A stretch of DNA of 64,000 bases from Clostridia bacterium. GTDB taxonomy: Bacteria; Bacillota; Clostridia; TANB77; CAG-508. Below the pieces are notes generated by a model. The model saw nothing but the letters and a program-made list of their open reading frames with translations, was not told the origin of the DNA and searched no databases. Shown piece by piece: positions 9,640 to 9,765 of this stretch; position 1 is the stretch's first letter, and each line of letters begins with the position of its first letter. The stretch is taken from positions 10,112 through 74,111 of the forward strand of contig JAAVZW010000027.1 of NCBI GenBank assembly GCA_022791835.1, written 5' to 3'. Made by a program: the position numbers and the translations under genes.

Positions 9640-9652
9640 AGCGAGTTCACCC

Positions 9653-9688
9653 CGCTTTTTCCGTCTTCTAAAACATCTGTGTGTGTGT
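9653..9688 (+). other. protospacer matching CRISPR spacer S3 (7465-7500) 36/36, 5' flank CCC
   Basis: Reverse complement of 7465-7500 = cgctttttccgtcttctaaaacatctgtgtgtgtgt = 9653-9688. 9650-9652 = ccc. Confidence 0.9.
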
Positions 9689-9714
9689 GTGTGTGTGTGT
9701 GTGTGTGTGTGTGT
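9678..9714. repeat. (TG/GT)18 perfect dinucleotide microsatellite
   Basis: t(gt)18 counted directly. It lies between the RBS/ATG at 9746 (minus strand) and the start codon of gene 9235-9639. Confidence 0.9.
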
Positions 9715-9765
9715 AGTTTTATGCTACTTACAGCATTTTTGTTCATTTTATTTTTACCTCCTATT

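Follow-up and report, generated by a model that had tools for sequence, protein, structure and literature searches.

Phase variation by simple sequence repeats (SSRs) is a textbook bacterial strategy, exemplified by contingency loci of the Moxon type such as lic and mod of Haemophilus, opa and pilC of Neisseria, and the CT dinucleotide repeats of oipA, hopZ and sabA in Helicobacter pylori. To our knowledge, simple-repeat phase variation has only lately been recognised in phages, and only for homopolymer runs in genes of a few virulent phages. We know of no CA or AG dinucleotide switches from Clostridia or their phages. Other phage tropism switches are the Gin/G-segment inversion of Mu, the Cin inversion of P1 and the diversity-generating retroelements of Bordetella phage BPP-1. 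Translational coupling that relieves an occluded ribosome-binding site (RBS) operates between the coat and replicase genes of MS2 and in many overlapping ATGA or TAATG gene pairs. Here we describe a (CA)18 tract in a short leader open reading frame (ORF) that precedes a 134-codon gene, annotated HFJ52_03960, on the minus strand of a prophage late region. The locus lies in a 64-kb stretch of a Clostridia metagenome-assembled genome (MAG) of 29% GC (GCA_022791835.1, contig JAAVZW010000027.1, positions 10,112 to 74,111), and this whole stretch is hereafter called the window.

Among phages, homopolymer contingency loci have been described in T2 and T4, and SSRs were reported to be under-represented in tail fibres (Gomez, Barrick and Waters 2025 preprint, PMC12633550). 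From Sorensen et al. (2021), the same preprint cites Campylobacter Fletchervirus phages whose genes for receptor-binding proteins contain poly-G tracts. The tract of the window falls outside this homopolymer class, being a dinucleotide repeat located in a separate leader ORF. It is very probably part of a hypermutable and conserved cassette. On sequence grounds we regard it as fairly probable that a stochastic translational switch, i.e. a contingency locus, lies at the end of the late operon and has the (CA)18 tract as its hypermutable element.

Leader cassettes with a variable repeat

On the minus strand, the stop codon of the ORF for the C-terminal part of the endolysin (9768-9766) is followed by AGGAGG, an ATG, the codons for MNKNAVSSIKL, (CA)18 read as (HT)6, DVLEDGKSGVNSL and TGA. 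The resulting leader peptide, MNKNAVSSIKL(HT)6DVLEDGKSGVNSL*, comprises 36 codons, and its TGA (9638-9636) overlaps the ATG (9639-9637) of the 134-codon ORF to give ATGA. Tandem Repeats Finder reported 9678-9714 as a perfect dinucleotide tract (period 2, 18.5 copies, 100% matches). A regular-expression scan of the window found (TG)18T to be the only dinucleotide run of more than 6 units. The second-longest run, (CA)6 at 7464-7475, belongs to a copy of the tract sequence in a CRISPR (clustered and regularly interspaced short palindromic repeats) spacer. The chance expectation for such a tract from base composition is about 1e-18. The tract, the Shine-Dalgarno (SD) sequence with its ATG, the leader peptide and the ATGA overlap that had been described in the original prediction were all reproduced from the sequence. 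The tract was also found again in independent assemblies (ENA, JGI, Logan and IMG/VR) and is therefore not an assembly artefact, which had been raised as a concern. All repeat numbers (n) given here are assembly values, and polymerase chain reaction (PCR) stutter may affect the exact n in any assembly, including n = 18.

Close relatives of the 134-aa protein were scarce, with only two found among 5.8 billion proteins. The contigs of these two and one more contig encoding the identical protein were compared with the window. Contig L003 of JGI metagenome 3300051405 encodes the same locus with (CA)19, and L001, whose protein is 80% identical, combines the same leader (MNKNARSGLKL...) with (CA)17. 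The start of contig L002 falls within the tract. L018 carries (CA)10 before a gene of 54% identity. In L019 and L020, the same leader position is occupied by (AG)11 before a gene of 45% identity, which precedes holin and endolysin and so corresponds in position to a paralogue found in the window. L166 contains another AG-type copy, whose leader differs and whose n is 13. That another repeat unit can occupy this place speaks for selection on the slippery tract as such and against selection on the CA sequence or a His-Thr peptide.

Two other functions of the tract were considered and rejected. As a selected feature, the (HT)n peptide is contradicted by relatives in which (AG)n encodes (RE)n at the same place and by leaders whose frame on entering the tract differs. 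As the spacing between the -35 and -10 elements of a promoter, the 37 nt of the tract would be excessive, and promoter prediction gave nothing in its vicinity.

Three loci in other gene contexts were identified when metagenomes were scanned for the tract junction, and they have the post-tract motif RRTGTTCTAAAAGA in common. The late region of a related phage (L008) contains two copies, a (CA)13 directly after the XhlA gene and a degenerate (CA)4, and 3' of each copy is a hairpin that contains the SD of the next gene and abuts its ATG. IMG/VR was scanned first for bare (CA)10 and afterwards for GCTGTA(CA)5 or longer, which resulted in 75 contigs with the cassette (n = 5-17), almost all of 26-33% GC. 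The layout is the same in all 75, namely an SD, an ATG, a leader of 10-14 codons ending in AAAnCCTTGnGGCTGTA, (CA)n, 25-45 nt, a second SD and the start of a gene. The window leader (ATGAACAAAAATGCTGTAAG...) is a diverged member of this family. A scan of IMG/VR with the window-type post-tract motif gave 0 matches. Isolated phages in INPHARED gave no match either by megablast of 9000-13300, by distant blastn of the IMG/VR cassette region or by tblastn of the 134-aa protein. A search of the whole window against Rfam found no family, and a protein-pattern scan of species-representative genomes gave no confirmed relative. Nine DNA-motif matches in the latter genomes were discarded. They had only 3 AC units, fell into unrelated coding sequence of unrelated taxa, and their number was about the estimated chance level.

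Repeat number differs between copies whose surroundings do not. Across 53 + 1832 flanking nt (1885 in total) L003 and the window are identical, yet they have 19 and 18 units, respectively. Of 14 groups formed by IMG/VR contigs that are identical in the 40 nt to either side of the tract, 12 differ in n, and one group of eight contigs showed n = 10, 17, 16, 14, 13, 10, 13 and 10. Fifteen contig pairs have no mismatch in 600 flanking nt, and in 11 of them n differs by 1-7 units. At least 6 of 71 contigs end inside the tract as assemblers do at polymorphic repeats, which is only suggestive. To judge from these alignments, the tract mutates far faster than its flanks. Related phages did not show the fixed repeat number that would have spoken against the phase variation put forward in the original prediction. 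Furthermore, multiples of three are over-represented among the differences in n between near-identical copies, although the pairs are not independent. This hints at selection on phase.

Two observations on members of the family stand apart. The pre-tract motif is kept at the nucleotide level in two reading frames (42 distinct leaders, e.g. L062, L140 and L153; window 9715-9746). A conserved RNA hairpin in this motif was considered and dropped, as there was no convincing covariation. In L006 (1045-1240, minus strand) and L007 (2180-2350, plus strand), a CA cassette with the post-tract motif stands before a strong intrinsic terminator (-28 to -35 kcal/mol), into whose 3' arm one of the leader phases reads. 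This arrangement suggests a phase-variable attenuator version before a membrane or pilin-like bacterial gene. The annotated ATG of that gene is out of frame with its long ORF at both loci.

Reading phases and the downstream start

The window locus was rebuilt in silico with n = 14 to 23. When n is a multiple of three, the leader stop overlaps the downstream start (ATGA). With a remainder of one, an early TAG ends the leader in ...TQMF*, and with a remainder of two the leader is fused in frame, reading ...RCFRRRKKRGELAMIFVEE.... The frame outcomes that had been claimed for 17, 18, 19 and 20 units were thereby all recovered. The 18 units of the window correspond to the reaching phase, and the 19 of L003 and the 17 of L001 to phases with an early stop.

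This pattern recurs in the family. In all 8 hand-tabulated phage-type copies, one phase stops at +1 to +14 relative to the downstream start, either as ATGA or a few codons inside the gene. Except for the lineage of the window and L003, the remaining two phases stop 21-36 nt upstream in a conserved motif (TTCTAA, AGATAA). Automatic analysis of 53 IMG/VR copies found 46 with exactly one reaching phase (-3 to +20) and two phases which stop more than 15 nt upstream. The states observed in IMG/VR were 18 reaching and 33 early. Judged by predicted frames, both states thus occur in nature, at about the 1:2 ratio of an unconstrained switch.

A feature that had escaped the first reading of the sequence is a hairpin which sequesters the SD of the 134-aa gene. 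At the same place, L001, L002, L008, L018 and L019 have hairpins whose stems differ in sequence (z-scores -1.8 to -5.7), and in L018 and L019 the SD pairs with codons 2-4. For 35 cassette-fronted genes, the probability that the SD 5-mer is paired had a mean of 0.87 and a median of 0.98 and exceeded 0.5 in every case. The corresponding values for 400 control genes from the same contigs were 0.38 and 0.35, with 33% above 0.5 (Mann-Whitney p = 1.9e-18). As an internal control, the region upstream of the SSR-less paralogue is unstructured (z = +1.15). The SD hairpin would give the coupling its switching power. A terminator scanner flagged the hairpin at 9640-9656, but it was rejected as a terminator since no lineage has a U-run there and the start codon lies directly 3'.

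Sequence comparison shows a hypermutable tract, a leader that looks translated, three phases, an occluded SD and, in one of the phases, a stop that overlaps the start. Gain or loss of CA units, in line with slipped-strand mispairing during replication, moves the leader ORF among these phases. The following mechanism is proposed. With n a multiple of three, as in the window, a ribosome would read through the SD hairpin and terminate at the TGA overlapping the ATG of the 134-aa gene. In the other phases it would stop about 30 nt upstream or, in the window lineage only, one phase would fuse leader and gene. Only leader ribosomes that reach the hairpin are expected to melt it and to allow initiation or re-initiation, so that the gene would be ON in about one third of the phases and otherwise OFF or low. 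We think ON/OFF control through translational coupling somewhat more probable than its absence. The product might be, on weaker grounds, a small tip or receptor-binding protein serving as an alternative to the constitutively coupled paralogue. Switching would then render the phage population heterogeneous in its adsorption apparatus, a form of bet-hedging. In its widest form, the proposal sees a portable, frame-agnostic SSR leader cassette that uncultivated phages of gut Clostridia would set before interchangeable receptor-binding tip genes, sometimes two per genome, so that each burst would be a random mix of adsorption specificities. It would consist of SD-ATG and a short leader, followed by (CA)n or (AG)n, two stops out of frame and a hairpin that sequesters the SD, the last replaced by an intrinsic terminator in the bacterial variant. 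We give this wider view about an even chance.

The downstream gene, its surroundings and rival explanations

The 134-aa protein had no Pfam or PHROG match. A family profile search resulted in 1270 cluster representatives, in which a domain of about 100 residues is mostly the C-terminus of a longer protein. Partner domains include Phage_T7_tail (the N-terminal domain of the T7 tail fibre) and the siphovirus domain DUF859. Long fibre ORFs of IMG/VR relatives end with the family domain. An AlphaFold model from a 49-sequence alignment (pLDDT, i.e. predicted local distance difference test, 91) consists of an N-terminal helix and an eight-strand beta domain. Foldseek matches of this model were weak (E >= 0.01), and Gram-positive adhesin or pilin domains scored similarly to fibres.

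The genes behind the IMG/VR cassettes form about 19 unrelated clusters, mostly of 85-160 aa, and three of the proteins belong to the family of the window protein. Among 10 cassette-fronted representatives, the only one with a PHROG match was annotated as tail or tail fibre. The genes are located after those for tape measure, distal tail and baseplate proteins and around those for XhlA, holin and endolysin. Identical leaders are followed by different genes in other contigs. The description of the 134-aa gene as fibre-like thus gains indirect support only, from domain co-occurrence, genome position and a weak fold match. A tail-fibre tip or receptor-binding protein is our best guess for its product, a tentative one that falls slightly short of an even call.

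L153 (4373-5825, minus strand) and L192 (11242-12694, plus strand) were observed to contain two cassette-fronted genes per phage, which flank the holin genes. Beyond a shared stretch of 12 N-terminal residues (MIPQYTKRKEEM) their products are entirely different, which is how alternative tips on one adaptor would look.

The late region of the window reads, on the minus strand, tail and fibre genes, the 124-aa paralogue, an XhlA-like protein, a holin candidate, an aspartyl-protease/SEC-C moron, the endolysin, the leader with the tract, the 134-aa gene and a strong terminator. The Amidase_3 part of the endolysin is located at 10058-10795, and its cell-wall-binding repeats run on in another frame to 9766. 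No promoter was predicted between endolysin and leader and a terminator directly follows the 134-aa gene, which is therefore the last cistron of the late operon. The regulated copy stands after the endolysin, and the paralogue is placed in the tail module of the same operon, coupled to a fibre ORF. The paralogue starts with an ATG that overlaps the stop codon of the fibre frame lying upstream (ATGAGTAA), and the end of that frame is the CA-rich ACACAAACACAA. This arrangement looks like, and may be, the constitutive ancestor of the cassette.

Further elements of the late region were noted in passing. An extended -10 promoter of perfect sequence (TTGACA, 17 nt, TG-TATAAT) lies across the stop codon of the 134-aa gene (9143-9238, minus strand). 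It is located about 25 nt upstream of the operon terminator and could yield a very short transcript or a small RNA. The moron in the lysis region (10856-11714, minus strand) has its own perfect sigma-70 promoter (11714-11687) and comprises an 80-aa ORF and a retropepsin-like aspartyl protease with a C-terminal SEC-C zinc motif.

In the mode of most known SSR switches, such as the H. pylori CT repeats in 5' coding regions, the repeat shifts the frame of the regulated gene itself. Here the leader ATG would be the real start, ON would be the fusion phase (n with remainder two, 17 or 20), and the window with n = 18 would be OFF. The original prediction had included such an in-frame fusion, and it is possible in the lineage of the window and L003, where one phase provides an uninterrupted 169-aa product, MNKNAVSSIKL(HT)nRCFRRRKKRGELA-MIFVEE.... 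The second out-of-frame stop of the family (AGATAA/AGATAG) is lost in the window motif (AGACGG), which is why this lineage can form the fusion. The fusion is not conserved, however. A stop closes that phase in L001, L002, both L008 copies, L018, L019 and 46 of the 53 IMG/VR cassettes, and continuity between the repeat and the frame of the regulated protein was confined to the window lineage. No fused protein was found among the homologues in 5.8 billion proteins, and every copy has its own SD and ATG before the downstream gene. We consider a frameshift switch very improbable, and the comparison of frames indicates that the conserved special phase is the coupled one and not the fusion. Rather less remote, though still unlikely, is a neutral hypermutable microsatellite, where the own SD of the gene makes expression independent of the tract and the leader is the 3' remnant of a duplicated fibre gene. 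The proportions of 35% reaching and 65% early phases match the neutral 1:2 exactly, and the paralogue illustrates how a leader could plausibly arise from the end of an upstream ORF containing ACACAAACACAA. Neutrality is difficult to reconcile with perfect tracts of 10-19 units kept in dozens of diverged lineages, one of them with (AG)n, and with a leader SD and ATG that are always kept. The same applies to the conservation of two early stops and one reaching phase in 46 of 53 copies, to SD sequestration that is near-universal in cassettes and absent from the SSR-less paralogue, and to the excess of multiples of three in the differences in n between near-identical copies, with the reservation on pairs made above.

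Leader and (CA)n could also act mainly at the DNA level as a linker or hot spot of recombination by which receptor-binding cassettes are swapped, length variation being a by-product. This would fit the conservation of AAAnCCTTGnGGCTGTA as nucleotides whatever the frame, the identical leaders before different genes and the approximately 19 unrelated protein clusters they front, and (GT)n tracts reportedly stimulate recombination in some systems. It leaves the leader SD and ATG, the two-phase stop pattern, the stop-start overlap and the SD hairpin unexplained, and as the principal role we find it quite improbable; it is compatible with a switch. A different question is what a switch would serve. 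Another late or moron function of the regulated protein, for instance a fibre chaperone, superinfection exclusion or an adhesin-like factor of lysogenic conversion, appears doubtful to us, with better prospects than the three alternatives above. The place after the lysis genes is the classical moron position, Pfam and PHROG are silent, Gram-positive adhesin and pilin folds match as well as fibres, and in L006 and L007 the cassette precedes a membrane or pilin-like bacterial gene. Against it stand the status of the gene as last late-operon cistron, without a promoter after the endolysin and with the terminator right behind it, the translational coupling of the paralogue to a fibre gene, and the role of the domain as C-terminal module of many long fibre-type proteins.

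Several points weigh against the translational switch that we prefer. What leader phase does to downstream translation we infer from the architecture alone. The states divide 35:65, which is the neutral proportion and by itself is no sign that phase matters. The difference between 18 and 19 units comes from two short-read assemblies, to which PCR stutter could contribute. A switch does not explain why the pre-tract motif is conserved at the nucleotide level. Some of the hairpins are weak, the one at the second L008 copy having 5 bp and z = -1.8. Even from a stop 20-25 nt upstream, a ribosome could disturb the hairpin, and translation may continue at a lower level in the OFF phases, making the device a rheostat rather than a switch. 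Finally, the prophage of the window has frameshifts in three genes. Its tyrosine integrase (35800-37180, plus strand) is split by at least 4 of them, the endolysin (9766-10795, minus strand) is split between the amidase and the cell-wall-binding repeats, and a fibre ORF (12877-13283, minus strand) continues in another frame. The host and cas ORFs, unlike these, are intact. Because of the three frameshifted genes the prophage is probably degenerate, unless indel errors of the MAG are concentrated in this region. In a degenerate prophage the switch may no longer matter for this copy, where it is probably a relic, though still mutating.

Table 1. Features of the leader locus and associated elements in window coordinates
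Feature	Position	Strand	Remarks
Leader SD AGGAGG	9757..9762	-	10 nt 5' of ATG; just past stop of endolysin C-terminal ORF; SD and ATG in leaders of all cassette copies
Leader ORF, 36 codons	9636..9746	-	ATG 9746-9744; TGA overlaps next ATG
(CA)18 tract, (TG)18.5 on plus strand; hypermutable element	9678..9714	-	Tandem Repeats Finder, regular expression, length polymorphism
Post-tract motif GATGTTTTAGAAGACGGA	9660..9677	-	Family consensus RRTGTTYTARRAGATAR; provides out-of-frame stop TAG (9670-9668)
Hairpin AGCGGG-GUGAA-CUCGCU	9640..9656	-	Holds SD GGGGUG of 134-aa gene; ends 1 nt before ATG
Regulated gene, 134 aa	9235..9639	-	N-terminal helix (residues 2-25) and 8-strand beta domain
Intrinsic terminator, 9-bp stem AGACUAGAC/GUCUAGUCU and U run	9143..9184	-	Closes late operon 3' of regulated gene
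Paralogue, 124 aa, 56% identity	12502..12876	-	Adjoins tail-fibre genes; without SSR and without SD hairpin
Protospacer straddling tract boundary	9653..9688	+	5' flank ...TTCACCC
Self-matching CRISPR spacer	7465..7500	+	First spacer after prophage junction (partial repeat 7501-7512)

The protospacer that had been noticed on the tract boundary matches its spacer at 36 of 36 positions in inverted orientation. The 25 nt proximal to the protospacer-adjacent motif (PAM) are unique sequence, and the distal 11 nt are located inside the tract. As had been supposed, changes in repeat length leave the match intact, provided that at least about 6 units remain. The prophage (approximately 7513-37257) is inserted in a type I-B CRISPR array of the host (7237-7513 and 37183-37466), whose repeat, read on the minus strand, is GTTATAATTTAAGTATTTTAGAATGTAAAT. 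It is flanked by the full leader-proximal repeat (37258-37289), which adjoins the cas3 end of the cas operon, and by a partial repeat of 12 nt (7501-7512). Both junctions contain the 12-nt core ATTTACATTCTA, and repeats of the arm type, TAGTAACAA, are found at both prophage ends (7631-7664 and 37183-37203). The self-targeting spacer is the first one behind the insertion, and thus the prophage cuts it off from the array leader. The interference genes cas6-cas8b-cas7-cas5-cas3 are intact (37467-43804, minus strand) alongside this perfect self-targeting spacer; the interval from cas3 to the array shows no cas1, cas2 or cas4. In Streptococcus pyogenes, prophages reportedly evade immunity by inserting into CRISPR repeats, and the insertion in the window resembles this.

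At the left end of the prophage, a promoter region of 94 nt (TTGACA...TATAAT) is duplicated (7663-7756 and 8126-8219, plus strand) before two small plus-strand genes. Its neighbourhood contains an AbrB-like ORF of 60 aa, a 157-aa ORF and an HNH/AP2-like ORF of 139 aa (8621-9040).

Comparison with known systems

With bacterial SSR contingency loci, the cassette shares a perfect short repeat, a fast-changing unit number, a three-phase shift and predicted ON and OFF alleles in near-identical genomes. In those loci the repeat is located in the 5' coding region or the promoter of the gene itself, whereas the present one is part of a separate ORF upstream. The output proposed here, termination beside a start codon combined with an SD-sequestering hairpin, also differs. 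As in Fletchervirus, T2 and T4, hypermutable phage repeats would make phenotypic sub-populations, and those of Fletchervirus affect receptor-binding proteins. The repeats of the latter three are homopolymers of 6-11 nt in coding sequences of virulent phages with Gram-negative hosts. The tracts described here are dinucleotide repeats of 10-38 nt in a portable leader cassette of temperate-type, AT-rich Firmicute phages.

A full-text literature search of incomplete coverage yielded no dinucleotide SSR leader cassette in phages or Clostridia and no SSR acting through upstream-ORF coupling, which is absence of evidence only. If the proposed reading is correct, this would be the first class of dinucleotide contingency loci in phages and the first SSR switch to act through coupling or attenuation by an upstream ORF rather than through the frame or promoter of the gene itself. 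If the coupling holds, an upstream ORF combined with an RBS hairpin, with an attenuator variant, would constitute a new route of SSR control. Temperate gut phages would thereby hedge their host range without recombinases or retroelements, and phase-variable receptor-binding genes could be found in viromes by a simple sequence signature. This would be of relevance to predicting host range and its instability in phage-based microbiome editing.

The mode of output resembles coupling of the MS2 type, in that the SD and start of the downstream gene are located in a hairpin and the upstream ORF ends between -2 and +17 from that start, so that the hairpin would be opened by translating ribosomes only. 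Such coupling is constitutive in MS2-type pairs, whereas here an SSR would decide whether the upstream ORF reaches the junction. With the devices of Mu, P1 and BPP-1 the cassette would have its purpose in common, namely the provision of alternative fibre tips, and in both cases the alternative tip gene, a putative one in the cassette, adjoins fibre and lysis genes. Unlike these devices, it involves no invertase, inverted repeats or reverse transcriptase, and the change would come about by replication slippage and take effect at the translational level.

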